Assembly (NCBI GenBank): GCA_016700315.1
Contig: CP065013.1
Span: 449,449-513,448 of the forward strand
Direction: 5' to 3'
Source: Candidatus Saccharimonadota bacterium
GTDB taxonomy: Bacteria; Patescibacteriota; Saccharimonadia; Saccharimonadales; SZUA-47
DNA length: 64,000 nucleotides
Part shown: positions 10,049 through 33,861 of the stretch, in pieces
How the letters are laid out: the number at the start of each line of letters is the position of its first letter
How positions within the stretch are numbered: the stretch's first letter is position 1
Translations under genes and position numbers: made by a program
The notes under the pieces: generated by a model
Seen by the model: only the letters and a program-made list of their open reading frames with translations
Database searches by the model: none
What the model was told of the DNA's origin: nothing

Positions 10049-11379
10049 TACAAACCTTTCGCAGGTTTTACCTCACCTTGTTTCTTAAACAATATCCATA
10101 ATGCCAGCGAAGTAACCGCAAATAAAATTAGATATAAAATGGGGAAAATGAAACCCCAAGAACCGATTTGCCCAGTAAACGCGTCACTAGTTAGTAGGTA
10201 CCCATTGACGATAAAAGGCTGTCTCCCAAATTCTGCAACCATCCAGCCAAGCTCTACGACGATAATTGCTAGCGGCCCTAGGGGCAAAAGTGCGATTAAT
10301 GTCGGCTTTTTATAACGCCAATCACGATACTTTTGCTTGAGCTTTTTTGAATGTAGTGCCGTAAATAAAACTGTAATCACTGCGCTCGAGCCGACTAATA
10401 AAAGCTTGGCTTCAAAGAGGAAATTTATAAATAGCATTGGCCATGTATCTTTCGGAAAATCCTGTAGACCCTTAACTTCAGTTGATGGGCTATCTCCTAC
10501 TAAAATGCTAAGCATGTTTGGGATTTTTACACCTCCCTCGACTTTGCCGTCTTCATTCCAATGACCGCCAAGAATGTATGGAGCATTTTTTTGTGTTGTC
10601 TCGTTGAGCTCAATTGCTGCGAATTTACGAGGTTGAGATCTTGCCAAATACTGTGTCTGAAAATGTCCAATAATACCTGTAATACCGATAAAAATTACCG
10701 CTGTTGCAGAGAGCCTGAACATAATTTGCCGTACGGCATTTTTGTCGTTGCCCGCTGGCCTAAACTTAAGTGTATAAAATGCGTATATGCCTAGAACACA
10801 CAGTAACGTTGCTAAATAATACCCTGCAATTGAGTGGCCAACCATAAACAATGCAGTTCTTGATAATAAATTAGCAAGAGGATTAGTCGTCTGAACAACG
10901 CCGTCAACTACATTTAATGTCCCCGGATTTTGCATCCACGCATTTCCGAGCGTAATCGCAAAAGCAGATCCTAAGGACCCAAGAGCCACAGGAACTCCGA
11001 GCCACCAATGTTTCCAGCCTTTGATCTTGCCCCAAGTCGAGACATAAAAGGCTAAAAATACAGCTTCCAGCATAAACGCATAACCTTCCCAACCAAACGC
11101 AAGGCCCATAACTCGTCCACCAAACTTAACTAGTCCGGCCCACATAAGTGACATTTGTATGGCGACTATTGTACCTGAAGCAACCCCCGCAATGACCAGA
11201 ATAAGAGTTGCATACGAAAGTCGCTTAGCGTGCTCAATAATTATTGGATTTTTCCTACGTATCGCAAGTTGTTCCATTAAAAGAATTACGGGTGGAAGCC
11301 CTACGCCAAGTAGTGCGAAAATTATATGAAATGCGAGGCTATCAGCCATCAATGCGCGCGCAGCATCTACATTTATCAT
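10045..11379 (-). CDS. cydA: cytochrome bd-type quinol oxidase subunit I
   Basis: 444 aa; N-terminus ARALMADSLAFHIIFALLGVGLP and the GWxxAExGRQP-like motif GWMVAEFGRQPFIV. Confidence 0.85.
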   Translation of the reverse strand: MINVDAARALMADSLAFHIIFALLGVGLPPVILLMEQLAIRRKNPIIIEHAKRLSYATLILVIAGVASGTIVAIQMSLMWAGLVKFGGRVMGLAFGWEGYAFMLEAVFLAFYVSTWGKIKGWKHWWLGVPVALGSLGSAFAITLGNAWMQNPGTLNVVDGVVQTTNPLANLLSRTALFMVGHSIAGYYLATLLCVLGIYAFYTLKFRPAGNDKNAVRQIMFRLSATAVIFIGITGIIGHFQTQYLARSQPRKFAAIELNETTQKNAPYILGGHWNEDGKVEGGVKIPNMLSILVGDSPSTEVKGLQDFPKDTWPMLFINFLFEAKLLLVGSSAVITVLFTALHSKKLKQKYRDWRYKKPTLIALLPLGPLAIIVVELGWMVAEFGRQPFIVNGYLLTSDAFTGQIGSWGFIFPILYLILFAVTSLALWILFKKQGEVKPAKGLY

Positions 11380-11506
11380 TACGCTTATGTTAACAGGGTA
11401 TTTTCGTTAGTGCAAAAAATGCAGCCGAACATCTTCGTGCATATAAATACGAAGTTTTTTTGGTCCCTAAATTTGGGGTACTAAGATGCTTGCATGCTCA
11501 AGTGGC

Positions 11507-11773
11507 TTACCGCAATTTAAATACCTTACCAATAACCATAGCAAATGGCACTACGCCAAAATGCCTGCTATCAGTACTTGCATCAGTGTTATCGCCAACC
11601 ACATAAACACCATCTGACTCGACGGCCGTTATTCTTTTTACTTTTTCGAGTCCGCAATGCTTAACCATGACAATATCGTTCACTTTTGGAACGTAACGCC
11701 AGCGTCTAACATAGATGATTTGTCCAGGCCTGAGGCTTGGAAGCATACTTGCTCCAACTACTCTACGCAACAT
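11507..11773 (-). CDS. sodX: Ni-SOD maturation protease (S26 signal-peptidase family)
   Basis: GASMLPSL catalytic Ser motif and GDNTDASTDSRHFG; directly downstream of sodN; start at ATG 11773 preferred over 11812, which would overlap sodN by 38 nt. Confidence 0.75.
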   Translation of the reverse strand: MLRRVVGASMLPSLRPGQIIYVRRWRYVPKVNDIVMVKHCGLEKVKRITAVESDGVYVVGDNTDASTDSRHFGVVPFAMVIGKVFKLR

Positions 11774-11774
11774 A

Positions 11775-12161
11775 CTAAGATGCTTTTTTTGTCTCCCAGA
11801 ATATTTTGGCAATTTCGTCTATCATTATTAGTAACTTTTTGCCTTCTTCGGGTTCGCTATGGTGCTTGCATTCTCCGGCTTGCTTGGTAGCTCTCCATAT
11901 TTTGTCATGAAGGTCGGGGTATTTTTCCAGATGTGGTGGTTTGAAATAGTCAGTCCACAGAACCCACAGATGATGTTTTACTAGCTCTGCTCTCTGTTCT
12001 TTGATAATAACCGCACGAATTCTATTGTCAGGGTCAAGACCCTCCATTTTCTCTTGTATTGCCAATACACTTTCTGCTTCAATCCTTGCTTGAGCTGGGT
12101 CGTAGATGCCGCAGGGTAGGTCGCAGTGAGCGTAAGCTGGTTTGATGTTGAATAACTTCAT
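11775..12161 (-). CDS. sodN: nickel-containing superoxide dismutase precursor
   Basis: Leader MKLFNIKPAYA followed by the Ni-hook HCDLPCGIYDP. Confidence 0.9.
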   Translation of the reverse strand: MKLFNIKPAYAHCDLPCGIYDPAQARIEAESVLAIQEKMEGLDPDNRIRAVIIKEQRAELVKHHLWVLWTDYFKPPHLEKYPDLHDKIWRATKQAGECKHHSEPEEGKKLLIMIDEIAKIFWETKKAS

Positions 12162-12437
12162 AACTTTAGTATAGCTTACAAGTAAAATATCTGCCTAGCA
12201 GCATCGAAAAGAGCCAGACTTAGTTAAATGAGGCCGTTTAGTCGGAAGACTAATGGGGAATCAAGACGTGGCCTTTGCCAAACGATGCATGCGCATTTTT
12301 TAGTATAAGCTCTGTTTGCGGTCGGATTGGCGAATATTCAGCATGCGTTTTTCTGTCCTTGAACCTATTATCACTATAACGAATAAAGTAGCACATACGC
12401 CTCCTGGATCGTATAGGAGCTGCCGCTAATTGACCAC

Positions 12438-12468
12438 TTGACTTAGAGTACTCTAAGTCATTTATAGT
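12438..12468 (+). promoter_or_regulatory. MerR-type promoter: TTGACT - 19-nt spacer - TATAGT with an 18-bp perfect palindrome operator
   Basis: TTGACT 12438-12443, TATAGT 12463-12468, palindrome ACTTAGAGTACTCTAAGT 12441-12458; the 19-nt spacer is the MerR-family hallmark. Confidence 0.7.
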
Positions 12469-12951
12469 ATGGCTATGGGTCACAAAAGTGATGTTGAGTA
12501 TCCGGTTGAAATACAAGAAGCGTCGCGGCTCAGTGGTTTGAGTGAGCACACGCTTCGTTACTACGAGAAAATCGGTTTACTACGCCCTATCAGCAGAGAC
12601 GCAAACAGCGGGCACCGCCTCTATGGCGCAGATGACGTCGCCACATTGCAATCTTTATCGTATTTGAGCGCCTGTGGTTTTTCTATCTCGGAAATGCGCC
12701 GTTACCTACAGTATATTCGCAGCGTCGACAACTATGCCGTTGAAGCGCTGAAGATGTTTGTCGAGCACGAAAAAGCCTTTGCTCAGAAGCTGAAGACGCT
12801 GAAGTTACAACATGAATACATCCAGACAAAGGTATTGTACTGGCAAGCACGCGTCGAGAACGATGAGACGAAGTTAGATGAAGCTATCACAAAGAACCGC
12901 AAGGTAGCAGAACAACTGCTCAATAGTAATCTGTATAGGAGGCAAAAATGA
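12469..12951 (+). CDS. MerR family transcriptional regulator
   Basis: IQEASRLSGLSEHTLRYYEKIGLLRPISRDANSGHRLYGADDV; likely leaderless from ATG 12475. Confidence 0.85.
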   Translation: MAMGHKSDVEYPVEIQEASRLSGLSEHTLRYYEKIGLLRPISRDANSGHRLYGADDVATLQSLSYLSACGFSISEMRRYLQYIRSVDNYAVEALKMFVEHEKAFAQKLKTLKLQHEYIQTKVLYWQARVENDETKLDEAITKNRKVAEQLLNSNLYRRQK

Positions 12952-17477: not shown

Positions 17478-17544
17478 TCAGCTACTAGGGCGAGGCTACT
17501 AGAGTAAAATAAGAGAAATGCATGCTGTAATTTACCAATAAAAT

Positions 17545-17636
17545 AAAATGGCCAGATAATTCTGACTCACTTTCTTTTGGCTCACAACTCCGCCAGCTGG
17601 CGGAAAGGGAAGTTATAATCACGATTAAGCACGATT
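17545..17636. repeat. copy B of the dispersed element, with palindrome TCCGCCAGCTGGCGGA at 17589-17604; left island repeat
   Basis: Direct reading; shares the right part with copy A (9400-9490) and the left 40 nt with 28101-28141. Confidence 0.6.
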
Positions 17637-17661
17637 ATACTTATGCTATACTCTAATCAAT

Positions 17662-18038
17662 GATACGAGTGAGTGGGGAGTTGTAGCCCTTTCCTCTCAC
17701 TCAACTACTGCTTACGCAGTAAATCGTTGAGCGATCCTTCACCTGTCTTTTTCAAGAGGGTGCCGAGTTGCATATCATCACGGACTTTGAAGTCCACGTT
17801 GTATTGCTTCTCGATGGTCTTAACCAATGTGTCACTACGTTTTTGACGTAATGGTCCACTTTGATTACGTGATCTGTACCCAGCCATGCCAGGTGCATCA
17901 GGTGCACGTTTGTTTGCCATAGTGTTTGTTCTCCTTTCTCGTCAGCATTACTATTGGTGGCTGACGTCTGCTGTACCGTCTTGCACCAATACTTACTTCT
18001 TAGAGAGTCGAGAGGAGGTCTCCCCACTCACTCGTATC
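17662..18038. repeat. 19-bp perfect inverted repeats flanking a small ORF
   Basis: GATACGAGTGAGTGGGGAG at 17662-17680; its exact reverse complement CTCCCCACTCACTCGTATC at 18020-18038. Confidence 0.8.
17705..17920 (-). CDS. hypothetical small basic protein (71 aa)
   Basis: Strong RBS (AAAGGAGA 7 nt upstream of ATG); no family recognised. Confidence 0.55.
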   Translation of the reverse strand: MANKRAPDAPGMAGYRSRNQSGPLRQKRSDTLVKTIEKQYNVDFKVRDDMQLGTLLKKTGEGSLNDLLRKQ

Positions 18039-18115
18039 TATGAACTTCTCTATTATAACTCTCAAGCTTTACGCTATATATTGTGTTATTTACATTCAAA
18101 TAAACACTAAATAGC

Positions 18116-19474
18116 TTATGCTTGCAGTCGTGTTAAGCAGCGGTAAATTTCGACCATTGCCAGTGTATCGAGCTTACAGTATTCGATTAGATCGGCGAGA
18201 ATTTGCTCTTTTTGGTCAGCTCGCTTATCGTCAAGTATCGCCTCCATCCAGAGTCGTTGGGCTGAACCACCTTCTTGGATGCCTAGTTCCTGATAAGAAA
18301 GCTCTGGGCAGACTACGGGCAAGACTTGTTTTATGCTTGCACTACCATTAAATCGTGGATCATCGTACCACTTGTTCTTAAATGGGATTATTAGATCAAC
18401 AACTCGGGCATTGATAGCCTCCATTGCTTCTTTGTATTCTGGGAGCATTTCGCCAAGTTCTGTATTTCGACTTTTCTCAAACTTCTCGTACCAAACAAGT
18501 ACTGTGCCTTTCGTTCCAATATCATTTAAGAGCTGTTCGGTGAGAGGGCGTGATGGGTCTGAATTCTCACGATGAAGGTATTCCTTCCACTCAAGTTCGG
18601 CATCTGGAGATTTTATGATGTGTAGTGAATACTGAAACGGAACTTGCTGATACGGGCGGTGGCCATCAAAATAAGGAATAAGGCCTGACATGGTTTCATA
18701 ATCCAGAAAATAGAGTGGATATTGAAGATCACCAAGAAAACGCTTGATCTCATCGTGTTGAATAGCTGGTAATACGTCCTCCTCTTGAGATATTGGTTCT
18801 GATGTTACTACAATGGCGTATATTTTGAGCCAATCATTCTTTGATCCAAGCTTAGCAAGATTAGGATTGGGATCTGGCATATTAGGTCGTTTTGCAATTT
18901 CGAGTGCAAGTGGCATATATTTTGCTGTCAGCTCACTCTTAGCTCGAACAGATTCAGATACATCCTGAATATGAGTAATTCCATCTGCTAATATATCTCC
19001 CTGACGAACATATTGATTATTGACGTGTATAACGTGGATTTTTCGTACATTCAATCCACTACCTTCAAGCACGGCGGTTTGAAACGCAAGGTCAAACTCA
19101 TGTTCCGCCTTTACTTTGGTGCTGGCTTTGACTTCAAATAAATCTACTTTATTCTTACCAACGAAACTGACAATATCGCATATACAGGTGAAGTCCTGCC
19201 ACTCGAAACGAGGTTGGAATAATACCTGATCTCCACGATCAATTGCATCCTGTGTTCGCTTGGGCAGTGTTAGATATTCATTATAGTCAGAGAATCCAAG
19301 CGTTTCTCCCTCTGGGAATAATGACTCAGCGTATGGCTCAAACTGATGCCCAGCATCGAACATTGCTTGAGTGTTTTCGTCAACTGGAGGAATCTTCTTT
19401 GGGTCATTCTTTTTTATCCAAAGCCAAGCTGGGTGCTTCAGGAACAACATGTAGTCTGACTTAGATAGTTGCAC
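18116..19474 (-). CDS. PD-(D/E)XK nuclease-like + DUF2779 domain protein
   Basis: N-terminal CDIVSF...LFEVKAS (D...ExK) motif; C-terminal FLDYETM...PYQQVPFQYSLH typical of DUF2779. Confidence 0.7.
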   Translation of the reverse strand: MQLSKSDYMLFLKHPAWLWIKKNDPKKIPPVDENTQAMFDAGHQFEPYAESLFPEGETLGFSDYNEYLTLPKRTQDAIDRGDQVLFQPRFEWQDFTCICDIVSFVGKNKVDLFEVKASTKVKAEHEFDLAFQTAVLEGSGLNVRKIHVIHVNNQYVRQGDILADGITHIQDVSESVRAKSELTAKYMPLALEIAKRPNMPDPNPNLAKLGSKNDWLKIYAIVVTSEPISQEEDVLPAIQHDEIKRFLGDLQYPLYFLDYETMSGLIPYFDGHRPYQQVPFQYSLHIIKSPDAELEWKEYLHRENSDPSRPLTEQLLNDIGTKGTVLVWYEKFEKSRNTELGEMLPEYKEAMEAINARVVDLIIPFKNKWYDDPRFNGSASIKQVLPVVCPELSYQELGIQEGGSAQRLWMEAILDDKRADQKEQILADLIEYCKLDTLAMVEIYRCLTRLQA

Positions 19475-21192
19475 TAAGATACCTTTTCAAGAATATCTAT
19501 TATTACTTGATTTGCCCTAGCATCTTGGAATAGAGCAAAATCATCAGAAAGCATAGCATTTAGTCCGTCCGCGTTTATGTAGTGATGACGAAGAATTGCT
19601 TCTCGTTGATCTATGTCTATTAGCGCAGGGTCATTGAGATAAATTGATGGTGCTTTGTTACTAATTTTCCGGTTTGTTACATCAGAAATTAGTGTTCTGT
19701 TCAATACACAATTTATTTGACTATCTGTTAGCTTGAGATCGCTATTCTTGTAATGTTTTGCAAGGTAATTTTTTGGGAAGATATGGTGGTCATCGAGCGT
19801 ATGTAATGTAATTGCATCGTCAATTCTAAAGTCCCTAGCACCCTTAAGCGCCGAAAGACACATAACTCCGCTATAAACCGAACTACCAGATCTGCTGGTC
19901 GAGTAGAGCTTATTAAGAAGATACTTGTGGTCGAGGTCCTGGCTAATTCTTGCCAAAACATCACTGTCATTCGATTTGCCCATCAAGTAATCCCTTAGAT
20001 CACGGAAGTCACTTGTCGTAGTAGACTCGACCGCACTTGAATATCTCTCCCCAAAAACAGAGCCCCAGTACCATTTGTCAATGGCTCGAGTACTTGTAGC
20101 GTCTAGTCGCTCTGATTGTGAAATGTGTATTAGGGCACCTAGAGTTACAGCCGTACCTGGATATGGTATCCATTTAGTATCAAATGCACCGTATCCCTGG
20201 GTGCTCTTGATTCTGGCTAATGCTTTATCTAAAGATGTTGCAGCAACAACGAAGTCTGTCTCGAAGTTATCGGCGGATAGATTTATTAGTGTGGATGACT
20301 TAACATCAAGTCCACGGAGTAAGGCTATGATCCTTAGAATAAAGATTGCATAAATGTCTGGGTCTTCATCCGATACATGGCTAATGTTTTCGTGTTGTTG
20401 TCGAGCTTCCCGCCAAAGTTGTCTCAATGCAATATTCGATCTATACAAACGTGCCGTTAAAAGATCAAAGACGGTTAACTTCACGCCCTTGCTATTCATT
20501 TTTTCAAACACAGCACATATTTCTGCAATCCCGTCTGCATCATCGTCTTTCACCTTGTCAATTTGTAATGTTGCCACCGTAAAATTAAAGAAAGGTTGTA
20601 GCTTTGCTTGCCAGGCCAGTACTTCCATGGCTCGTTCGGGCTTTATGGCATCGTCAGCGCTAGACATATATTCGGCTTGCCAAGCGTTCCAATGTGCTTG
20701 AGTGAGTGCAGTGAATGGTACAGTCTTCTTTTCAAACTGCAATTCCTTATTTTCGATCAATCTTCTTACATCTCTCTCGCGCTCACCATATATAGCATTT
20801 TCCAGGTCGTCTTTCATAAGTGCTACTAGATTTAGGAAAAATCGATAAGGGCTAGAAGTGTATTTTAGATTTACATTCTGTGGTGCATAAAGTACGTAAT
20901 GGAGAGTTGTGATACGCTGCTGACCATCAAGAATATATTTCTGTACGGTGTCTTCTGAGGCAATATCTGCGACACCTTCAATTGTTCTGTAAGCAAAAGG
21001 TAAGCTTTTGCTATCTGCATCCTGTAGCAATATAGATCCTATGAAGTAGCCCTTGAAAATAGAGATCAGCAAATCTTTCACATCTGCATATGGCCATACA
21101 AAGCTACGTTGAAATTCAGGTAAAACCAACTGTCCTTTCTGGGCTTTCTCTACTAGCCCAAATAAGCTTTGGTTATCTGGTGTTATTTTCAT
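19474..21192 (-). CDS. GmrSD-like DUF262 + DUF1524 (His-Me finger) enzyme, putative modification-dependent (type IV) restriction enzyme
   Basis: LPEFQRSFVW and LDGQQRITTL (DUF262); C-terminal DDHHIFPKNYL...NRTLIS..TNRKISNK (DUF1524). Confidence 0.8.
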   Translation of the reverse strand: MKITPDNQSLFGLVEKAQKGQLVLPEFQRSFVWPYADVKDLLISIFKGYFIGSILLQDADSKSLPFAYRTIEGVADIASEDTVQKYILDGQQRITTLHYVLYAPQNVNLKYTSSPYRFFLNLVALMKDDLENAIYGERERDVRRLIENKELQFEKKTVPFTALTQAHWNAWQAEYMSSADDAIKPERAMEVLAWQAKLQPFFNFTVATLQIDKVKDDDADGIAEICAVFEKMNSKGVKLTVFDLLTARLYRSNIALRQLWREARQQHENISHVSDEDPDIYAIFILRIIALLRGLDVKSSTLINLSADNFETDFVVAATSLDKALARIKSTQGYGAFDTKWIPYPGTAVTLGALIHISQSERLDATSTRAIDKWYWGSVFGERYSSAVESTTTSDFRDLRDYLMGKSNDSDVLARISQDLDHKYLLNKLYSTSRSGSSVYSGVMCLSALKGARDFRIDDAITLHTLDDHHIFPKNYLAKHYKNSDLKLTDSQINCVLNRTLISDVTNRKISNKAPSIYLNDPALIDIDQREAILRHHYINADGLNAMLSDDFALFQDARANQVIIDILEKVS

Positions 21193-22634
21193 ACTTTAAT
21201 TTCTCCTTCTACTACAGCTTTTTTCATAAAATCAACAATATCTGGGTCTACTATCACATCATAGCGCTTAACTGGCGAATCTAAATATAACCCTTCTAGT
21301 GAGACGCATCTACTCAATGCAACGTAGGTTTGTCCATGTGCAAATGCACCATCACTTAGGTCGACTGCTACGGATTGATACGTCTGACCCTGTGATTTAT
21401 GTATTGTTATTGCCCACGCTAAACGTATTGGAAGTTGCTTGAAAGAGCTGATAACTTTCTTATCGAGCTTTCGTTCATCGGGGTCATATTCATATTGGAT
21501 TTTATCCCAACTCGCAGGTGCAATAGTGTGCTCAACACCATCTATATTTACCCTTACAATGTCTTGATTCAATTTTGTTACTACGCCAAGTGTTCCGTTT
21601 ACCCAACGACGTGGCTTTTCAGTATCATTCTTTAGCATCATGACCTGTGCTCCGACTTTTAGCTTTAGTAGCTTTTCTGTGGGGAATGAACTTTGTGTTA
21701 TATTTCCCCAAATCTCCGCTTCGTAAGTTCTTTCTTCGCCAGATAACTCTGCAAGCTTTTTATGATTTATATATGAAACCGTAGAATTATGACCCGCAAG
21801 AGTAATAAACCCGCCCTCTGGCTTTTCTGCCTTGGTACGTTCATTTAGTTCTTTCAGCTGATCTTCTTTGATCTTTCCATATCTTATAGAATTTAGTATT
21901 GCTTTGAAATCAGCATCTTTTTGTCGGAATATCTTATTTAATTCGTAGATACTTAGGTTTGAATTTTTGATCGAGGGGGCATTGAAGAAATAGACTCCGC
22001 CAAAGTTATGTTTGAAGTACCTATCTAATTCTCCGTCCGTAACTACTGGCGGTAGCTGATACAAATCACCAAACATTACCATCTGAATACCGCCAAACGG
22101 CTCATCGTTTTTGCGTGCTATTTGTAGCTTTTCACTGATTGCTTCCATAAGATCAACACGAACCATCGAGATCTCATCGATAACAACCGTATCTATATTT
22201 CGAAGCAACTCACGTAATTTGTAGTCTACCTTTAGATCATCAAAATCAATATCAAATGGCATTTTGAAGAACGAATGTATAGTCTGACCACCGACATTAA
22301 GTGCAGCAACTCCAGTAGGCGCTACTACTACAACTCGCTTGCCACTATTTTCAACAAAATATTGGAGGAGAATAGACTTACCAGTACCAGCTTTGCCAGT
22401 TATATAGTAATTATCATTTGTCGTCTCGATGAGATTAAAAATGTTTGCTTGCTCATCGCTAAGCGTGATGCTTGATATGTCTACTTGCTTTATGTTGAGC
22501 TTTGGTTTCGGCTGAAGTCGGGGACTAGGAGTCGGTTTTTGATATGTGCTTTGGCTCGTATTTTTATTACCAGAAGCTTCACCCACGAAGTAGGCTATAG
22601 CACCTACTAAGCCAATGACTATTAGCCACTCCAC
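21189..22634 (-). CDS. Pif1/RecD-like SF1 helicase with N-terminal transmembrane helix
   Basis: GKAGTGKS, VVIDEISMV, GDLYQLPPV, TIHKSQGQTY, YVALSRC; N-terminus MEWLIVIGLVGAIAYFVGEA is hydrophobic. Confidence 0.8.
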   Translation of the reverse strand: MEWLIVIGLVGAIAYFVGEASGNKNTSQSTYQKPTPSPRLQPKPKLNIKQVDISSITLSDEQANIFNLIETTNDNYYITGKAGTGKSILLQYFVENSGKRVVVVAPTGVAALNVGGQTIHSFFKMPFDIDFDDLKVDYKLRELLRNIDTVVIDEISMVRVDLMEAISEKLQIARKNDEPFGGIQMVMFGDLYQLPPVVTDGELDRYFKHNFGGVYFFNAPSIKNSNLSIYELNKIFRQKDADFKAILNSIRYGKIKEDQLKELNERTKAEKPEGGFITLAGHNSTVSYINHKKLAELSGEERTYEAEIWGNITQSSFPTEKLLKLKVGAQVMMLKNDTEKPRRWVNGTLGVVTKLNQDIVRVNIDGVEHTIAPASWDKIQYEYDPDERKLDKKVISSFKQLPIRLAWAITIHKSQGQTYQSVAVDLSDGAFAHGQTYVALSRCVSLEGLYLDSPVKRYDVIVDPDIVDFMKKAVVEGEIKV

Positions 22635-22637
22635 GGC

Positions 22638-25600
22638 TTAGGTATCTTTCTCGCTAAAATCAAGCTTCGGCAGGTTACTAACAATGTCTACTGTCTGTAC
22701 GCTTACATTGATGACACTTAACAGTAGATCAAGTATATATCTAGGGTTCCCAACCTCTTTTGCCCAATCATTCGGGTCATTTGTGATGCCTGTCTTCTTG
22801 TCGGTTCTTACTTGATACCTATCAATAATCCACTCTATTGCACTCTTGCCATTTACTACATACTCATACGCTTTTTCAGGAATATCATCGATTGTTATCT
22901 GGGCATTGTATATTATCTTATCCTTGTGCTCCTTATTCGGGAATTTCATCTTCTGGACAATATAATTATTGTGTTGGGTACCGGTCACCTTAACGCCTTC
23001 ATAAGGCAGAACGTCTTCATAATTTACATGTATGTCAGCGAGCTTTCGGCCAGCCTTACTGAATTCCCAGAATTCTTCGGGTTTTTCTACTAGTGGCAAT
23101 CTTGGTAGCATTTTTGATAAGTCATTTGCGAATTCATGCCGATAATCAGTGCTATGAAGTAAGCCATACACATAGTAGAATATATCCTCTTTAGAAATAT
23201 TCTGGTTAGGGTACTGGTCATTAGCTGTCCGTAAGACGTAATCGCTGATACCGTCTTTTCTCACATAATCATCGTTAGTTTCGCCAAATAATGACGGCAT
23301 TGAGTTATTTATCTTTTCATAAAGATGTAGCGGGTAGCACTGTGAATTCTGCATAACTTGGTAGTCTGAGACAAGATTAGTCATAAGTGAGGAAAACTCC
23401 TTTGAACCACCAATGCCAGTAACACAAATCGTGTAGTTCTCATTTGTGCCTACTGAAATGTCATTCCATTTACCAGGGCGGTAAATTGTAGGTTTTGATC
23501 TCACCATGAACTGCTTAAAGAACGGTCTATAAACCACCGTGTCCAGGATGTCTTTTTTAACTCGATTTTCAACCCAATAGTCATTAGATATTTTTGAATT
23601 GTATACCTTTGCATCACCTTTGCTTTGTATGCCCATTGACTTTACATTGAACACAGATTTGTCCTCGTCGTTTTCTTGCAGGGGCAGAAATTTCTTGAAG
23701 GAATCGTTTCTTAGATTAACCCAATCTGCATGTTCATTTGGATGTATAGTCTGCCAGCTCATTACAGATTCTACAGTTCTAAATTCACTAATCGTTTTTA
23801 ATTTCTGGTCTTGTGATAAATAATCGCCAATATCGAGGTAGTATATTTTAGCTTTATCGCTTTGATTTTCTTGGTCTTTAACCAATAATGTAATTGATAT
23901 TGGCGTTCTCGTACCAGCACCAAAAACGTTGCCAGCTTCACGCCTACGCTGTTCACCACTAGTGCGTGCATTACCTCTAAGATTAAAGACGTATATGCTA
24001 GTAAATTCCTCTTCTAGACTTTTCCTGAAACCAGACATAGCTGAGTTCTCAAGCCAAGCACCATTGCTTACGAAACCAACTACGCCACCCTCATCACCTA
24101 AGCGATCTGAAGCCCAGCGGTACGCCTTAATGTAAGAATCGTATAACTTATTTTTGTTATTCGTATCAACACTTTTTGCATAGGTTTTTTCTATTCTTTT
24201 TTCTAGCTTAGGGTATTTCTGATTCTGTGCATTGTCATCAGTAGATTTTTGCCCTGCAGAATATGGAGGGTTACCGATGATTACCCTTAGTGGAGACTTC
24301 TTTTGGCGTTGTAGGCGTTCTGAGTTCTCTGCGAGGGCTTCACTGAACAATTTAGCATTGTCATCTTCTTCATAGAGCTGGAATGTATCTGTAAGTACTA
24401 CGCCTTCGAAGCTATCATACTCGTCTTTTTCTAGTAAATCATGGTAGGCGTTCTCGATATTCACTGCCGCAATATAGTAAGCAAGCAGTACGATTTCATT
24501 TGCGAATATTTCTTGTTTATATTTTCTCTCTAGGTCTCTAGGTTCGATAACGCCACTTTGGAGTAATCTCGTAATGAATGTACCCGTGCCTGTAAATGGG
24601 TCTAAGATATTTACATTTTCATCACTTAAGCTTCTGCCGAACTCTTTCTTGAGCACATCATTTACTGAATGAATGATAAAGTCCACAACCTCAATAGGCG
24701 TATAAACAATTCCTAATTGTTCTACCATTTTAGGAAATGCAGTCTTAAAGAATTTGTCGTATAGCTCAACAATGATTCGTTGCTTACCCTCAGAGTTGTC
24801 TATGCCTTCGGCACGCTTACGAACTGACTTATAGAACCCTTCTAATAGTTCTGCGTCAACATCTTCAATTGCTTTAGCTTCAATGGCATCTAAAGCTTTT
24901 TGCATAGAGATTGATACAGCATTGTTTTGCACAAACGAGTAACCCTCAAACAAAGCCTCAAAAACTGGTTTAGTAATAATGTGCTGAGAAAGCATTTCAA
25001 TAGCTTGCTGTTCTGTAATGGAAGGATTGATATTTTTTTGTAGACCCTTAACAAACTGGCGGAATGCCATGTGTGCTTCGTCATCTTCGTCAACAATTTT
25101 TGTAATCCGAATTATTTGACGTTCTGCAATATCTGCTACATTTTTAGCCCAGTTCTCCCAATACTGACGATCACCAACTTTCTGCACCATCTTTGCGTAT
25201 ATTGCTGTTTGTAGTGCATCAAATTGCAGACCGAGCTGAGTGTTTTTAACTTGTGCCTGTGCTGATTCAAGATCGTTGAAGGGGTCACCATCACCATCTG
25301 GATCTGGACGACCAACTAATATTTGATCTGGACGGTTTTTATTTAGATCAATCTTGTTGACGGTCGCGTTAAAACGGTCGTCGTGAGCTCGCAATGCATT
25401 AAGTACGGTCCAGACAACTTTATATCTTTCATTATCATCGAGGGCTTTTTCTGGCTCGACATCCGTTGGCACTACAATTGGTATAACTATGTAACCATAT
25501 TTTTTTCCAGGACTTTTACGCATTACACGCCCAACAGACTGTACTACATCTACTTGTGAATTTCGTGCAGACAGGAACATTACGGCGTCTAGAGACGGAA

Positions 25601-27329
25601 CATCTACACCTTCACTAAGACAACGCACGTTAGTCAATACCCGTGCTTCTTGTTGATTTTCAAGCTCTTCCTTAAGCCATGACATTAGTTCGTCTCGTTG
25701 TGTAGCTGACATAGCACCATCGATATGCTTTGAATTGAGCTGGACGAGTGTTTCTCGTTTTAACTCTGGAACAGATTCTGAGTAGGTGTCACTAATAGCA
25801 TTGAAAGAGTCGGTTATTTTTTTAGAGGTCTTAATATTTGAAGTAAAAGCTACTGCTCGTCTCATAGGTTCAGGATCATAAATATGAACCGTGCCTTTTT
25901 CACCCAATATTTGCTTGGACATAGCATTGATACAACCAATAAGCTTTGATGCGTCGTCAACGCTAATTTCGTGTTCTGGATTTTGTATGACTTTTTGGAC
26001 TTCTGGGGTTACATCGTTTTCTGAAAGAGTGAGGATTAAAACCTTATAGTCTGACAAAAGATCATGTTCTACAGCCTCTCCAAAGCCTATACGATAGATC
26101 TCTTTTCCGTACAATGCCTCGTCATCCATAGAGCAAATAACTGCTGAGGAATCTTCAGCTTTACGCTTTGATTCCTCGCCATACAAGCGAGGGGTAGCTG
26201 TCATGTAGATACGCTTGTCAGCATTTATGAATGCATTGTCATGAATTTTTACAAAAGCAGATTCATCATTACCTGCAAGAGTTACTCCAGTAGTTCTATG
26301 TGCTTCATCGCATATTACTAGATCAAATTTTTCGTACTTACTACCTATGCTCTCAAGTCGTTTTTGTGCTTTAGAGATAACATCTATTGACTGATAGGTT
26401 GAGAATACGACAGTCAGCCCCTTCTTATTAGTCATTTCAAAGTATTCAAATTGCTTTAGTATTTGATTGACATTAGTAGAAGCCGGAATAGCTAGATCAA
26501 CAATGCTAAATGTCTGGGCATCTTCATTCTTCTTTTTGTCTTTAGTAATCTCAGAGTCCGAACATATTGCTATCGGGTTTATTTCTTCCTTTGCATCAGC
26601 AGTCCATTCACGCAGTGTCTGACCAAGTAAGGCAATAGATGGGACAAGGAACAACACAACTCCATCTTTTTGCGTTATTTCTTCTGCGATACGTAAACTC
26701 GTAAATGTCTTACCTGTACCGCAAGCCATTATCAATTTTCCTCTACTGTTTCCTTGAGAGAAATAATCCATAGACTTGTGAAGCGCATCACGCTGATGAA
26801 ATCGAAGTTCCTTTTTGGCGGTACGTGCCTTGTCGCCATAGATGCCCTGATCTATCTTTAACCAGTCAACTGGAGCCTCTTCCAGATCATTTAGGCTTAA
26901 CCTAGTAACTGGTGGGTCTTGATGTAGTAAAGTCTCATTTGCCGTAGAAGTCCATTTATTGGTAGTCGATACCCATAAGCGATAGCTAAACTTAATTCGG
27001 TTTTTATCTGCATCTTCAAAACTTTTGCCTGAAGTAGACAGGAATGTATCAACTTCTTCTTTACTAATACCTGAGTCTGCCTGATAGCACTTACATTGGA
27101 TGGCCCAGTATTCACCCTCAGTAGTGAGTGCAACTAAATCTATCCCGACATCTTTTCCGCCGAATGAACTTCTATGTGGAAATTCATTCCAAAGCCATAT
27201 TTTTTCTAGATGCCTATACTTTGGGTCAGTATAAAAGTAGGCTTGAATTAGGCGTTCAAATCTTGTTCCTTTATCTCGTTCCGAGTGAGCTAAATTGCGG
27301 TATTTTTCTAGAATTTTGTTGAATGCCAT
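22638..27329 (-). CDS. Type ISP restriction-modification enzyme (Mrr-like nuclease + SF2 translocase + N6-adenine methyltransferase + target-recognition domain)
   Basis: 1563 aa; GIDLVA...AIQCKCY nuclease core, ACGTGKT / ICDEAH helicase motifs, GNPPYSAGQ methylase motif IV; architecture and size match LlaGI-type enzymes. Confidence 0.85.
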   Translation of the reverse strand: MAFNKILEKYRNLAHSERDKGTRFERLIQAYFYTDPKYRHLEKIWLWNEFPHRSSFGGKDVGIDLVALTTEGEYWAIQCKCYQADSGISKEEVDTFLSTSGKSFEDADKNRIKFSYRLWVSTTNKWTSTANETLLHQDPPVTRLSLNDLEEAPVDWLKIDQGIYGDKARTAKKELRFHQRDALHKSMDYFSQGNSRGKLIMACGTGKTFTSLRIAEEITQKDGVVLFLVPSIALLGQTLREWTADAKEEINPIAICSDSEITKDKKKNEDAQTFSIVDLAIPASTNVNQILKQFEYFEMTNKKGLTVVFSTYQSIDVISKAQKRLESIGSKYEKFDLVICDEAHRTTGVTLAGNDESAFVKIHDNAFINADKRIYMTATPRLYGEESKRKAEDSSAVICSMDDEALYGKEIYRIGFGEAVEHDLLSDYKVLILTLSENDVTPEVQKVIQNPEHEISVDDASKLIGCINAMSKQILGEKGTVHIYDPEPMRRAVAFTSNIKTSKKITDSFNAISDTYSESVPELKRETLVQLNSKHIDGAMSATQRDELMSWLKEELENQQEARVLTNVRCLSEGVDVPSLDAVMFLSARNSQVDVVQSVGRVMRKSPGKKYGYIVIPIVVPTDVEPEKALDDNERYKVVWTVLNALRAHDDRFNATVNKIDLNKNRPDQILVGRPDPDGDGDPFNDLESAQAQVKNTQLGLQFDALQTAIYAKMVQKVGDRQYWENWAKNVADIAERQIIRITKIVDEDDEAHMAFRQFVKGLQKNINPSITEQQAIEMLSQHIITKPVFEALFEGYSFVQNNAVSISMQKALDAIEAKAIEDVDAELLEGFYKSVRKRAEGIDNSEGKQRIIVELYDKFFKTAFPKMVEQLGIVYTPIEVVDFIIHSVNDVLKKEFGRSLSDENVNILDPFTGTGTFITRLLQSGVIEPRDLERKYKQEIFANEIVLLAYYIAAVNIENAYHDLLEKDEYDSFEGVVLTDTFQLYEEDDNAKLFSEALAENSERLQRQKKSPLRVIIGNPPYSAGQKSTDDNAQNQKYPKLEKRIEKTYAKSVDTNNKNKLYDSYIKAYRWASDRLGDEGGVVGFVSNGAWLENSAMSGFRKSLEEEFTSIYVFNLRGNARTSGEQRRREAGNVFGAGTRTPISITLLVKDQENQSDKAKIYYLDIGDYLSQDQKLKTISEFRTVESVMSWQTIHPNEHADWVNLRNDSFKKFLPLQENDEDKSVFNVKSMGIQSKGDAKVYNSKISNDYWVENRVKKDILDTVVYRPFFKQFMVRSKPTIYRPGKWNDISVGTNENYTICVTGIGGSKEFSSLMTNLVSDYQVMQNSQCYPLHLYEKINNSMPSLFGETNDDYVRKDGISDYVLRTANDQYPNQNISKEDIFYYVYGLLHSTDYRHEFANDLSKMLPRLPLVEKPEEFWEFSKAGRKLADIHVNYEDVLPYEGVKVTGTQHNNYIVQKMKFPNKEHKDKIIYNAQITIDDIPEKAYEYVVNGKSAIEWIIDRYQVRTDKKTGITNDPNDWAKEVGNPRYILDLLLSVINVSVQTVDIVSNLPKLDFSEKDT

Positions 27330-27669
27330 ATTATAAACTATTGTATCTTAAAATTACCTCTGTTGGAAACTTGCTTTTTATTGGCCGTAAATGACACGGT
27401 TATGTTTGCAGCAAATAAAATTACTCGTAAATTGCAAGAAAACACGTCCTGACCACTCCAAATGCGTGTCAGTGGGCATCAAATAATCGTTCATCTATTT
27501 GGTAATTATTTGGTTGGGGTATGGCTCACAAATTTTTCGGCCAGATTTTCGACCCTAATCGTCGTTTTTGTATCTAATTTCGGATGGGTTATCTAGCAAA
27601 ATTTTGTTCGATGCTACAAGTTAAGCTACTGAACAGTACGAAAACTAAATGACACTTTGTTGCGACACT

Positions 27670-28008
27670 CTATCGCATAATTTACCCTGGCTGTAAAAGC
27701 CGTATCACAGACTATGACGAATATGTAAAGGGCCTGAAAGCTCGACGAGAGCTATTAGACGACCAGCTCGTTAATTTGGCCCACAATGATAAAGATTCTC
27801 CATTGACCAGTTAGTATCTGTTAGAAATAGCTGCAGAAGCTCCTAAGCTATTCCAAAGTTCAATAGCGGCTCTAAATCCAAGCTTTTACGCTTTTTACTT
27901 TCGTACCTCATAACTCAGGACAAAAAGCTCGTTTTCAATCTAAAAGCACCATTTGATGTAATCTCAGAGTGCTCTCAAAATCAATCTTGGGTCGGGAGGC
28001 CAGATTAA
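27670..28008 (+). pseudogene. remnant of the C-terminal part of a large serine recombinase
   Basis: ITDYDEYVKGLKARRELLDDQL...TS*YLLEIAAEAPKLFQSS. After a frameshift it continues KLLRFLLSYLITQDKKLVFNLKAPFDVI...WVGRPD. One in-frame TAG (27812-27814), at least one frameshift, and no catalytic N-domain upstream. Confidence 0.55.
27989..28008 (-). other. tRNA 3'-end fragment (att-like copy of the 33558-33577 tRNA end)
   Basis: TGGGTCGGGAGGCCAGATT versus tRNA end TGGCTCGGGAGGCCAGATT (one mismatch). Confidence 0.7.
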
Positions 28009-28100
28009 TAATGTATAATCCGCCCGTTTTGTCCGCCGGCTATCGGGCGGGGGATTATCGAACTTCCAGTTCGAACCAGGCATCTTTCGATGTCAAAAAG

Positions 28101-28141
28101 AAAATGAGCCAGATTAATCTGACTCACTTTCTTTTGGCTCA
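28101..28141. repeat. right-hand copy of the ~40-nt island direct repeat
   Basis: See 17545-17584; contains the 12-nt palindrome CAGATTAATCTG. Confidence 0.6.
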
Positions 28142-28523: not shown

Positions 28524-28551
28524 TGGCTCCGGGGACTGGATTCGAACCAAG
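28524..28551 (-). other. orphan tRNA 3'-end fragment (T-arm + acceptor + CCA) from a different tRNA
   Basis: Minus strand reads CTTGGTTCGAATCCAGTCCCCGGAGCCA; no matching 5' acceptor strand (TCCGGGG) nearby. Confidence 0.55.
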
Positions 28552-33557: not shown

Positions 33558-33861
33558 TGGCTCGGGAGGCCAGATTCGAACTGGCGACCAATTGGTTACA
33601 CTTATTCATTATTTTCATAATGGCGTGGACTATATCATCATCCTTACGGATGTAGGGCGCTATTTGGACGATTATTGTTAGGCTCACATCCTAGTCTCTG
33701 AACCTTCCGAACTCTTTTAGCCTAAGTTCGGCTTGGCTGCTGATTACCATATAGCTTTGATGCTATTTTAGGCTTCCAGCAATTCACCCTATTTTCACTA
33801 CTTGGTTTCCCAAGTAGGCTGCCTCTGACAGCCAACTGCGCTACCGCTGCGCTACTCCCGA
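33558..33861 (-). tRNA. intron-containing tRNA, anticodon GTT (Asn) after splicing; exons 33861..33828 and 33598..33558
   Basis: Joined exons give a canonical cloverleaf. Acceptor is TCGGGAG/CTCCCGA, D arm GCGC-AGCGGTA-GCGC, anticodon stem GTTGG/CCAAT with loop CTGT|TAA. T arm is GCCAG-TTCGAAT-CTGGC, followed by discriminator G and an encoded CCA. Confidence 0.8.
33599..33827 (-). ncRNA. group I intron (IC3-like, 229 nt) in the anticodon loop
   Basis: 5' exon ends in U, pairing as U.G in P1 (exon GGCUGU with intron GCAGCC). P2 hairpin CUACUUGG-GAAA-CCAAGUAG. The core GCCAAGCCGAAC...GUUCGGAAGGUUCAGAGACUAGGAUG resembles the Azoarcus/cyanobacterial tRNA intron core as I recall it. The intron ends in G. 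Confidence 0.7.

Follow-up and report, generated by a model that had tools for sequence, protein, structure and literature searches.

Our analysis indicates that the defence locus described here is probably one operon of separable modules, in which a mobile island carries a Type ISP-Pif1 unit, a swappable GmrSD-type enzyme and a DUF2779 nuclease as its 3' cap. The window, i.e. the whole 64-kb stretch of DNA that was analysed, comes from a Candidatus Saccharibacteria genome, and its ORF listing contained the run of four minus-strand genes at the positions reported by a first-pass annotation (Table 1). Reading the junctions base by base confirmed the 3-nt gap between the Type ISP and Pif1 genes (TAA-gcc-GTG), the 4-nt overlap of the Pif1 and DUF262 genes (ATGA, with GAAGGAGAA upstream) and the 1-nt overlap of the DUF262 and DUF2779 genes (TAGTG, with GAAAAGG upstream). 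The start codons are considered right because the predicted N-termini (MEWL... and M-x-(I/L)-SKSDYML) agree with the homolog consensus. Domain assignments were confirmed as well: the Type ISP enzyme is of the LlaGI/LlaBIII type, the helicase belongs to the Pif1 family, the GmrSD-type enzyme is divergent and the DUF2779 protein joins a Cas4-like to a DEDDy nuclease domain. The catalytic motifs are intact in all four. Overlaps of 4 nt are common across the whole window, and in 75 related loci a gap of 15 nt or less around DUF2779 was found in 40 of 66 co-directional upstream pairs and in 29 of 59 downstream pairs. Close gene packing is the norm in the compact genomes of these bacteria, and the overlaps therefore speak for co-transcription, not for a common function. 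Since the DUF1905 gene upstream of the operon has its own terminator hairpin (28098-28141) and a terminator scan of the locus gave no significant internal terminators, the four genes very probably form one transcription unit, as had been claimed. The leader, which resembles no protein of the related loci, should hold the operon promoter; a candidate, TTTCCA-18-TACAAT at 27369-27340, was not significant by itself in the promoter scan.

Table 1. Features of the island and its borders in the 64-kb window
Feature	Position	Strand	Remarks
Left repeat copy	17540..17584	.	beside ZnuB end; terminator-like on minus strand
Small basic 71-aa ORF within island	17705..17920	-	own Shine-Dalgarno (GAAAGGAG)
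DUF2779 protein, Cas4-like PD-(D/E)XK N-domain + DEDDy RNase-H-fold exonuclease C-domain	18116-19474	-	452 aa
Divergent GmrSD-type (DUF262 + His-Me/HNH) putative Type IV enzyme	19474-21192	-	572 aa
Pif1-family SF1B helicase	21189-22634	-	481 aa
Pif1 N-terminal hydrophobic segment, residues 3-18, WLIVIGLVGAIAYFVG	22581..22628	-	followed by K/P-rich (basic) linker
Type ISP restriction-modification enzyme (LlaGI/LlaBIII type)	22638-27329	-	1563 aa
Leader within island, ORF-free	27330..28096	-	765 bp; no ORF >=80 aa
Right repeat copy (att-like)	28097..28141	.	overlaps terminator hairpin of upstream DUF1905 gene

The locus is a horizontally acquired mobile defence island of 10.5 kb (about 17585-28096) with housekeeping genes on both sides. 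A 45-nt imperfect direct repeat, whose copies are 84% identical and which is absent elsewhere in the window, flanks these 10.5 kb, and its identical 23-nt core, CTGACTCACTTTCTTTTGGCTCA, is present in only two copies in the 64 kb (0 expected). The GC3 of the island genes is 0.33-0.37 (0.35) versus 0.45 +/- 0.06 for the other genes (Mann-Whitney p = 0.002). Because the repeat brackets the four-gene block and its GC3 differs, we regard the block as one mobile unit, the four genes having been acquired together as a single island. The insertion point is probably the terminator common to the convergent ZnuB and DUF1905 genes; a terminator-like site lies within the left repeat copy at 17566-17551(-), and the right copy is likewise terminator-like, with a partial match to the CsrC 3'-hairpin.

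Within the island, only the pairing of Type ISP and Pif1 recurs as a conserved unit. LlaGI and LlaBIII methylate an asymmetric site and, on unmodified DNA, translocate and cut when two enzymes collide. The first protein of the operon shares with LlaGI and LlaBIII (PDB 5FFJ and 4XQK; 1198 and 1229 bits, respectively) a single polypeptide comprising an Mrr-like nuclease, an SF2 ATPase, a coupler and a gamma-class N6-adenine methyltransferase with TRD, as reflected in its Pfam domains (Mrr_cat_2, ResIII, Helicase_C, ISP_coupler, N6_Mtase and Type_ISP_C) and motifs (GTGKT204, DEAH341, FTGTG912 and NPPY1020). The second protein matched PIF1 (1.5e-35) and Pif1_2B_dom and carries the helicase motifs GKAGTGKS80, DEISM153 and HKSQG412. 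Six independent loci were sampled for this Pif1 clade (the window/L001, L095, L096, L098, L180 and L181; 59-100% identity), and each has a Type ISP gene upstream of Pif1 in the same run. The two genes are adjacent with gaps of 0-3 nt in four of these; L095 and L180 have one or two intervening genes, among them a homologous AAA_13/SMC-like ATPase. The identity matrices of the two proteins are congruent, with 68-80% among four loci and L181 as the outlier in both. By comparison, none of 80 loci of distant Pif1 proteins (39-61% identity) had a Type ISP or DUF2779 gene within 10 kb, and all four of the more distant Type ISP genes examined (51-60% identity) were solitary and unpaired with Pif1. Against a strict pairing stand the intervening genes of L095 and L180 and the case of L018, in which a different SF1 helicase-nuclease accompanies Type ISP in place of Pif1. 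Moreover, the six independent loci are a small sample in which long contigs were favoured, and the actual frequency of the pairing may hence be as low as ~60%.

Type ISP and Pif1 thus appear to constitute a conserved, co-diverging two-gene restriction-modification unit with the helicase as dedicated partner, which sets this subclade apart from classical LlaGI/LlaBIII and the closest non-CPR homologs, all solitary genes. The helicase is further distinguished by a hydrophobic N-terminus (Kyte-Doolittle 19-mer mean of 1.83), which is also hydrophobic in 93 of 120 Pif1 homologs at a strict threshold and begins with a conserved MEW.... This segment is found neither in solved Pif1 structures, whose PDB matches start only from residue ~55 of the window helicase, nor in distant Pif1 relatives; from its hydropathy and conservation we consider it a putative membrane anchor. 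In the literature searched, no paper mentions 'Type ISP' together with 'Pif1'.

The slot between Pif1 and DUF2779, in contrast to the ISP-Pif1 pair, is variable. In the window it is occupied by the GmrSD-type protein, and elsewhere by a 323-aa unknown protein (L096), DUF2130+Ymh (L095), DUF4268 (L044) or nothing (L181). Conversely, GmrSD-type homologs adjoin DUF2779 in L088-L090, where Type ISP and Pif1 are missing, and in L092 and L094, where DUF2779 is missing, they adjoin Type I or Mrr genes; in L090 and L094 they directly follow Type I R-M genes. The GmrSD-type enzyme is therefore an independent, swappable cargo. Combinations of this kind are familiar from the island of plasmid pEFER, in which BREX is joined by BrxU of the GmrSD family, and from Type I R-M loci into which Type IV genes are embedded. 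As in pEFER, a methylation-based system stands beside a modification-dependent DUF262/HNH enzyme with complementary coverage, but here the partner is a Type ISP enzyme, and the DUF262 protein belongs to a distinct clade of ~570 aa with only a weak match to BrxU (7P9K, E = 0.017). It matched GmrSD_N at 4.9e-30, whereas GmrSD_C reached 16.9 bits and so missed the cutoff of 23 that the 66%-identical homolog P0126 passes (25.4 bits); 30 homologs share DGQQR89 and D468-H-H-I-F-P...N494...N498 without exception. The first-pass suggestion that the two arms cover phages escaping either one is a reasonable idea, but it describes a known design principle and is not evidence of a new composite system.

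The fourth protein matched DUF2779 (PF11074, 2.4e-41) and, weakly, Cas4 in PADLOC; D100, E114-x-K116, D258-x-E260 and Y432-x3-D436 are invariant. Its AF2 model was of low confidence and a fold search returned no significant match. Its two-domain build and its conserved D/E/K and D-E-D-D-Y residues are those described for the family, including MMSYN1_0389 of the minimal Mycoplasma JCVI-syn3.0, a longer protein, and RNase-H-like clade F.17 (PMC13621843; PMC3985635); PMC13621843 makes no mention of a position at the 3' end of Patescibacteria defence cassettes. Of 80 species-level loci, at least 35 contain recognisable defence genes within the co-directional run that ends at DUF2779, and 17 lack an upstream defence run. 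The families directly upstream included RT/AbiP2-DRT (7), ResIII (6), GmrSD (3), ThsB_TIR (3), SduA_C (2) and HsdR (2), and the capped cassettes include Type I, MmeI-type, Type III-like, DRT/AbiP2, Thoeris, Shedu-like and Type IV systems. Across Patescibacteria, DUF2779 is thus a conserved cap at the 3' end of defence cassettes of many unrelated kinds and, the upstream systems being so heterogeneous, need not act with them. It follows ISP-Pif1 in four of the six independent loci, represented by at least three clades that are 32-36% identical to one another, and identity comparison revealed no co-divergence with the pair. Genes downstream of DUF2779 are a mixture of housekeeping and unknown genes. 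Thoeris and AbiP2 have no obvious requirement for a DNA exonuclease.

A reading to which we give somewhat less than an even chance is that DUF2779 has no defence role: it and, at the far end, a divergent ParB-N6/N4 methyltransferase would be conserved bookends or backbone genes of an integration hotspot or ICE-like element in which defence genes gather as cargo. SXT ICE hotspot 5 and the P2/P4 hotspots are such defence-cargo hotspots of mobile elements, and they resemble the present loci in having conserved flanks around highly variable defence genes. Wholly different cassettes lie upstream of ~75-80%-identical DUF2779 genes in related genomes, several systems are stacked in places, for instance Thoeris together with Type I or MmeI, and DUF2779 does not co-diverge with ISP-Pif1. 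The divergent methyltransferase was present at the far side in eight loci, adjoining Type ISP in L096, L098 and L181; a large serine recombinase was found in 11 loci and TrbL/T4SS pilin in six, a further likeness to mobile-element hotspots, and the downstream synteny (141 aa, FtsK-like, 482 aa) is conserved in ~8 loci. MMSYN1_0389 is moreover described as quasi-essential (PMC13621843), which hints at a housekeeping role for the family. However, the other backbone genes are all absent from the window, where DUF2779 shares the low GC3 of the island and sits between the direct repeats, and therefore moved with the cassette. The association also covers several deeply divergent, paralogous DUF2779 clades in several CPR phyla, and in L098 an analogous PD-(D/E)XK + RNase_H_2 fusion takes the place of DUF2779 beside ISP-Pif1. 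Unlike the flanks of the SXT, P2 and P4 hotspots, the cap is a nuclease gene, co-directional with the cargo and tightly abutted to it.

For the operon of separable modules, a division of labour can be proposed. The Type ISP enzyme, judging from homology and intact motifs, would methylate an asymmetric site, translocate and cut unmodified DNA upon collision of two enzymes. The putatively membrane-tethered Pif1 might then load onto the nicks or ends so created close to the membrane, the point of entry of foreign DNA, and unwind 5'->3'. Where present, DUF2779, a predicted dual Cas4-like PD-(D/E)XK and DEDDy 3'-5' exonuclease, could digest both strands in a split AddAB-like clean-up, the weakest step of the scheme, and the GmrSD-type enzyme, by homology, may independently attack base-modified phage DNA that evades Type ISP. 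AddAB and RecBCD are helicase-nuclease machines that degrade restricted DNA. The likeness to these and to Cas4 lies in the combination of an SF1 helicase with a PD-(D/E)XK nuclease and in the proposed end-processing after restriction; the differences are that helicase and nuclease are separate genes here, that the nuclease has an extra DEDD exonuclease and that the helicase, as read from its sequence, is apparently membrane-tethered.

It is unlikely that Pif1 and DUF2779 serve the replication, transfer or integration of the island and not restriction. Pif1/RecD-like helicases and RecB/Cas4-like nucleases are frequent in phages and conjugative elements, att-like repeats bound the island, the triad of L181 is surrounded by terminase-like genes, a ParB-methyltransferase and a serine recombinase, and in L095 relaxase-like and T4SS coupling-protein genes lie close by. 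Nevertheless, Pif1 is found downstream of, and co-diverges with, Type ISP and not any recombinase, the window's island contains no recombinase, relaxase or replication gene, and a replicative helicase would not be expected to carry a membrane anchor.

We consider it quite improbable that the four genes make up one obligate, fixed system with helicase and DUF2779 as sensors or effectors common to the Type ISP and GmrSD arms, as the first-pass annotation had envisaged. Translational coupling, four intact motif sets, a single compositional unit within repeat borders and the finding of DUF2779 after close Saccharibacteria GmrSD-type homologs in three of three additional contexts would all fit such a system. 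The exact set, however, was seen only on the near-identical contigs L001-L004 (DUF2779 and DUF262 proteins 100% identical, Pif1 and Type ISP 99.8-99.9%), and a fixed architecture is thus unsupported. ISP-Pif1 with other slot genes or none, and GmrSD-DUF2779 without Type ISP or Pif1, already largely refute it, and PADLOC matched no multi-gene system, only PDC-M55C without its A or B components. The interpretation as first proposed is partly supported: the single transcription unit and the partnership of Pif1 with Type ISP stand, but DUF2779 is not peculiar to this operon and the GmrSD slot varies. That four unrelated defence genes came together by pure chance, with no functional link between any two of them, is hardly credible. 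Defence genes do generally cluster in islands and close packing is usual in these genomes, but for ISP-Pif1 the 6/6 sampled loci versus 0/80 distant Pif1 and the congruent divergence already contradict a chance origin.

Finally, the small 71-aa ORF of the island is annotated as a gene on L001, the identical contig, and was seen only in near-identical strains; a 91-aa frame that overlaps it had no Pfam match.

The first-pass annotation had read four minus-strand genes of the window, encoding a Type ISP restriction-modification enzyme, a Pif1 helicase, a GmrSD-type (DUF262) enzyme and a DUF2779 nuclease, as a fixed composite defence system. The coordinates proposed for the four ORFs proved exact when the ORFs were called and the junctions read base by base, and the N-termini implied by the assigned starts agree with the homolog consensus. 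Family searches bore out the domain assignments of all four proteins, in each of which the catalytic motifs are intact. The fixed set itself did not hold up. The exact four genes were found only on near-identical contigs from four other samples (L001-L004), with 100% identical DUF2779 and DUF262 proteins and Pif1 and ISP proteins at 99.8-99.9%, and gene-centred surveys split the operon into modules. A PADLOC check returned no full multi-component match. Only the DUF262 protein matched a component, PDC-M55C (1.4e-25); ISP, Pif1 and DUF2779 matched none of the PDC-M55 components, leaving the A+B+C set incomplete, and a literature search on PDC-M55 found nothing.

The close spacing of the genes had also been taken as the sign of a single unit. 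It does argue for co-transcription; of a common function it tells little, because short gaps and 4-nt overlaps are common. Around DUF2779 in 75 related loci, gaps of 15 nt or less separate 40 of 66 co-directional upstream pairs and 29 of 59 downstream pairs, and 4-nt overlaps are frequent across the whole window. Since the DUF1905 gene upstream ends in its own terminator hairpin, the operon start must fall in the 765-bp ORF-free leader; promoter and terminator scans gave no signal above shuffle expectation. The best-supported reading is that the four genes form a co-transcribed yet modular defence island.

Positions and arrangement of the features discussed, in the window and in homolog-bearing loci (L numbers) from other genomes or samples
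Feature	Locus	Positions (strand)	Detail
Type ISP gene	window	22638-27329 (-)	
Pif1 gene	window	21189-22634 (-)	
GmrSD-type (DUF262) gene	window	19474-21192 (-)	
DUF2779 gene	window	18116-19474 (-)	
ISP / Pif1 junction	window		TAA-gcc-GTG; 3-nt gap
Pif1 / DUF262 junction	window		ATGA; 4-nt overlap; Shine-Dalgarno-like GAAGGAGAA upstream
DUF262 / DUF2779 junction	window		TAGTG; 1-nt overlap
Imperfect direct repeat, 45 nt	window	17540-17584 and 28097-28141	identical 23-nt core
DUF1905 terminator hairpin	window	28098-28141	
GC-rich palindromes	window	17589-17607; 28033-28052	CCGCCAGCTGGCGG; CCGCCGGCTATCGGGCGG
71-aa ORF	window	17705-17920 (-)	
tRNA 3'-half-like fragment	window	28524-28548 (-)	GGTTCGAATCCAGTCCCCGGAGCCA, encoded CCA
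Interrupted tRNA gene	window	33558-33861 (-)	
Group I intron	window	33606-33839	RF00028, 95 bits
1953-aa ORF	window	34474-40335 (+)	
Gene order	window, L001		ISP→Pif1→GmrSD-type→DUF2779
Gene order	L095		ISP→767 aa→Pif1→DUF2130→Ymh→DUF2779
Gene order	L096		ISP→Pif1→323 aa→DUF2779
Gene order	L098 (Woesebacteria)		ISP→Pif1; divergent PD-(D/E)XK+RNase_H_2 fusion adjoins
Gene order	L180		split ISP→AAA_13→455 aa→Pif1→157 aa→DUF2130
Gene order	L181		ISP→Pif1→DUF2779; gaps 0 and 2 nt
AAA_13/SMC-like ATPases	L095; L180	5695-7998; 5368-7578	
PDDEXK_1 + RNase_H_2 (PF13482) fusion	L098	1547-3043 (-)	498 aa
ParB_N-N6_N4 DNA methyltransferase	L012, L015, L016, L017, L021, L023, L033, L070	~-9.8 to -5.5 kb from DUF2779	~440-470 aa
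ParB_N-N6_N4 DNA methyltransferase beside ISP-Pif1	L096; L098; L181	1557-2873; 1-652; 912-2258	
Thoeris-like trio	L013; L015; L063	8137-9980 (L013)	ThsB TIR, ThsA Macro, ThsB TIR
AbiP2/DRT-type reverse transcriptases	L008; L021; L031; L032; L045; L046; L090	64-1623 (L008); 11267-12625 (L090)	

Judged by its sequence, the 1563-aa Type ISP enzyme is a clear member of its family. It carries all six Pfam domains in the order of the Type ISP architecture, from an N-terminal Mrr-like nuclease through SF2 helicase-like ATPase, coupler and N6-adenine methyltransferase to a C-terminal TRD, aligns over ~1230 residues to the solved LlaBIII (1229 bits) and LlaGI (1198 bits), and retains the ATPase motifs GTGKT204 and DEAH341 and the methyltransferase motifs FTGTG912 and NPPY1020. 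Type ISP enzymes serve as the textbook example of a full restriction-modification system in one polypeptide; LlaGI and LlaBIII are stand-alone enzymes that translocate and then cleave when two of them collide at head-to-head sites. The 481-aa protein is a true Pif1 helicase, with matches to PF05970 (1.5e-35) and PF21530, SF1 motifs (Walker A and B), and E-values of 1e-104 to 1e-50 against solved Pif1 helicases.

The suggestion that this helicase is more than a chance neighbour was upheld. In a Pif1-centred survey, with homologs picked solely by identity and long contigs, a Type ISP gene lay upstream in the same run at all six independent loci (Pif1 identity 59-100%), and the pairwise identity matrices of ISP and Pif1 are congruent. 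As an outgroup we used distant Pif1 relatives (39-61% identity) among the matches listed in a metagenome profile scan, with the close-clade sample left at its size; neither Type ISP nor DUF2779 occurred within 10 kb at any of their 80 loci. A scan of viral contigs found no Pif1 and two Type ISP genes, both solitary (57-60% identity), and Type ISP genes at 51% identity on Treponema and Parabacteroides plasmids are likewise solitary. Among the top matches listed, no plasmid record was shared between Type ISP (219) and Pif1 relatives (25, all at most 44% identity). In locus L018 the gene after a 66%-identical Type ISP encodes another kind of SF1 helicase with a fused DUF559/MTES_1575 nuclease, and DUF2779 comes next. 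The survey of Pif1 and Type ISP neighbourhoods indicates that ISP→Pif1 is a conserved, clade-specific, co-inherited two-gene module. Unlike the stand-alone Type ISP enzymes, members of the window subclade thus appear not to be solitary in genomes, with Pif1 always downstream. Homologous AAA_13/SMC-like ATPases (28% identity, E = 8e-83) stand between ISP and Pif1 in two of the six loci and may belong to the module as an optional third component.

A feature that the first-pass annotation had missed is the N-terminal segment of the helicase. All ISP-linked Pif1 proteins start with a conserved hydrophobic segment, MEWL(I/L)xxGxxxxxxY (Kyte-Doolittle 19-mer mean 1.83), followed by a K/P-rich polar linker and then the helicase core. 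A strict hydropathy threshold was passed by 93 of 120 homologs, with a weaker version of the segment in most others. Alignments to solved Pif1 structures and to distant relatives begin only near residue 55. From the acidic tip of the N-terminus and the basic linker we infer a putative N-out/C-in membrane anchor that leaves the helicase on the cytoplasmic side. Neither a dedicated Pif1 partner of Type ISP enzymes nor its membrane-anchor-like N-terminus was found described in the literature.

The 572-aa GmrSD-type protein matches GmrSD_N/DUF262 at 4.9e-30, its DGQQR89 motif is invariant in 30 homologs, and its C-terminal DHHxFP...N...N motif is invariant as well. For a C-terminal DUF1524 His-Me finger nuclease, its GmrSD_C score is 16.9 bits, under the cutoff of 23; a 66%-identical homolog (P0126) scores 25.4 bits. 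Saccharibacteria homologs at 64-69% identity (L088, L089) lack both ISP and Pif1 and have downstream a DUF2779 gene of a different paralog clade. Locus L090 has the order Type I R-M→YgjP→GmrSD-type→DUF2779→RT, and more distant homologs adjoin Mrr-type or Type I genes without DUF2779. This GmrSD-centred survey indicates an independent, horizontally mobile cargo gene, often landing beside R-M genes, and swappable Type IV cargo is the best-supported reading of its domains and neighbourhoods. That a methylation-based system and a modification-dependent enzyme complement each other is a known principle; BrxU accompanying BREX and Type IV genes embedded in Type I loci are examples.

The borders of the island are marked by a 45-nt imperfect direct repeat, the copies of which enclose the leader, the four genes and a small 71-aa ORF. 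The repeat core occurs twice in the 64-kb window, with no copies expected by chance. Housekeeping genes adjoin the island at both ends: ZnuABC and Fur lie to one side, and DUF1905, an NTPase and genes of nucleotide metabolism to the other. The GC3 of the four genes is 0.33-0.37, against 0.45 +/- 0.06 for the 35 other genes compared (p = 0.002). The locus thus shows both the att-like direct repeats at its borders and the atypical composition looked for in an integrase-mediated genomic island. The repeat overlaps the terminator shared by the convergent ZnuB and DUF1905 genes, apparently the site at which the island integrated. Between the repeats there is neither an ORF for a recombinase or integrase nor a remnant of one, serine recombinases being seen in related loci only. 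A search of the leader for a decayed recombinase found none, and terminal inverted repeats at the island ends were not significant (28 versus 24 +/- 4 in shuffles). GC-rich palindromes lie just within both ends. The basic 71-aa ORF, downstream of DUF2779, has a strong Shine-Dalgarno sequence and no family match, and was seen in near-identical strains only. Just outside the island, between the NTPase and DUF1905 genes, lies an isolated tRNA 3'-half-like fragment, for which the window contains no corresponding full tRNA. As the window has only this one copy of it, the fragment was rejected as an att partner; it may be what is left of an old integration event.

The 452-aa DUF2779 protein matches PF11074 with 141.4 bits (cutoff 23.3), and residues D100, E114, K116, D258, E260, Y432 and D436, which make up a PD-(D/E)XK triad and a DEDDy set, are invariant in 12 homologs. 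The family has been described as a Cas4-like/DEDD fusion (PMC13621843, PMC3985635), and the residue pattern agrees with that description (PMC13621843). A profile search of PDB sequences gave no matches. An AF2 model (mean pLDDT 60, pTM 0.49; input alignments at least 74% identity) was of low confidence and was set aside as evidence; Foldseek gave no match at E <= 0.001, the weak top matches being Cas4, Exo5, lambda exonuclease and RNase H folds.

Across 80 species-level genomes, DUF2779 is nearly always the final gene of a co-directional run, and at least 35 of the 80 runs hold recognisable defence genes upstream. These include Type I HsdR/M/S, MmeI-type enzymes with a DEAD helicase and T5orf172, Type III-like Mod/Res, Type ISP, full GmrSD, AspBHI-type Type IV enzymes, DRT/AbiP2 reverse transcriptases, a complete Thoeris trio and Shedu-like genes. 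At 17 loci there was no upstream run, and several genomes have two DUF2779 copies. The genes directly downstream are a mix of housekeeping and unknown genes, so DUF2779 marks where the variable cassettes end on the 3' side. The best-supported reading of the family is that it generally caps defence cassettes in the CPR. A literature search found no description of a systematic 3'-cap position in Patescibacteria defence cassettes, and nothing on DUF2779 with helicase and restriction genes. The genes upstream were compared for a common C-terminal module that might explain the recurrent start-codon overlap, and proved unrelated. Large serine recombinases, TrbL/T4SS pilin and FtsK-like genes recur near the cassettes. 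At eight loci the far boundary is a divergent ParB_N-N6_N4 methyltransferase, a family that also adjoins ISP in three ISP-Pif1 loci; in L096 and L181 the gene after it encodes a homologous ~130-aa protein, and L181 has a terminase-like 483-aa protein there as well. The methyltransferase gene may serve as a second bookend or belong to the backbone of a mobile element. In three Saccharibacteria genomes a complete Thoeris-like trio is stacked between DUF2779 and an R-M system, and AbiP2/DRT-type reverse transcriptases (PADLOC models, E down to 1e-188) adjoin DUF2779 in at least seven loci.

The cap position has two candidate accounts. DUF2779 may work functionally with the systems upstream, as is suggested by its place inside the repeats with island-like composition, by the absence of other backbone genes from the window, and by L098, where DUF2779 is absent and a nuclease fusion of analogous domain build and a different family stands in its place, divergent beside ISP-Pif1. 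Alternatively, it may be only the bookend of a cargo hotspot. The mechanistic heterogeneity of the upstream systems points that way, as do the lack of co-divergence with ISP-Pif1 (the DUF2779 partners share 32-36% identity between clades, while ISP and Pif1 share 59-80%) and the quasi-essentiality of a family member in a minimal Mycoplasma (PMC13621843).

Domain content and gene linkage are the observed parts of the working that we propose for the island. The Type ISP enzyme would translocate and cleave on collision, as established for LlaGI and LlaBIII; a membrane-tethered 5'-3' Pif1 could then unwind the DNA, DUF2779 might clean up as an exonuclease in two directions, and the GmrSD-type enzyme would attack modified DNA independently. 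A wider proposal, which we consider unlikely though worth stating, is that Patescibacteria possess a modular defence-operon frame: an anchored Pif1 would bring Type ISP restriction to the envelope, the point of entry for foreign DNA or DNA imported by competence, and a DUF2779 dual exonuclease would be the shared downstream effector capping R-M, Type IV, DRT and Thoeris cassettes, degrading the DNA that they expose and possibly recycling nucleotides. Such recycling would possibly serve organisms unable to make nucleotides. A Type ISP subclade with a co-diverging, apparently membrane-tethered Pif1 suggests an unrecognised accessory step, which could be end processing or localisation where DNA enters. 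Bacteria of the Candidate Phyla Radiation are CRISPR-poor and uncultured; DUF2779, which caps dozens of unrelated cassettes across this radiation, is a practical marker for their defence islands, and the 3'-cap pattern gives a testable lead to its function. Saccharibacteria are now genetically tractable via natural competence, so that these ideas of modular defence can be tested.

Two observations concern other parts of the window. A group I intron splits a tRNA gene in the anticodon loop; ARAGORN reported no tRNA there in default mode and one with a 229-nt intron in intron mode, and the anticodon reads as Thr, Tyr or Phe according to where the splice junction is placed. Beyond it, the ORF of 1953 aa lies in a region with a G+C of 0.52-0.57, markedly above the rest of the window.
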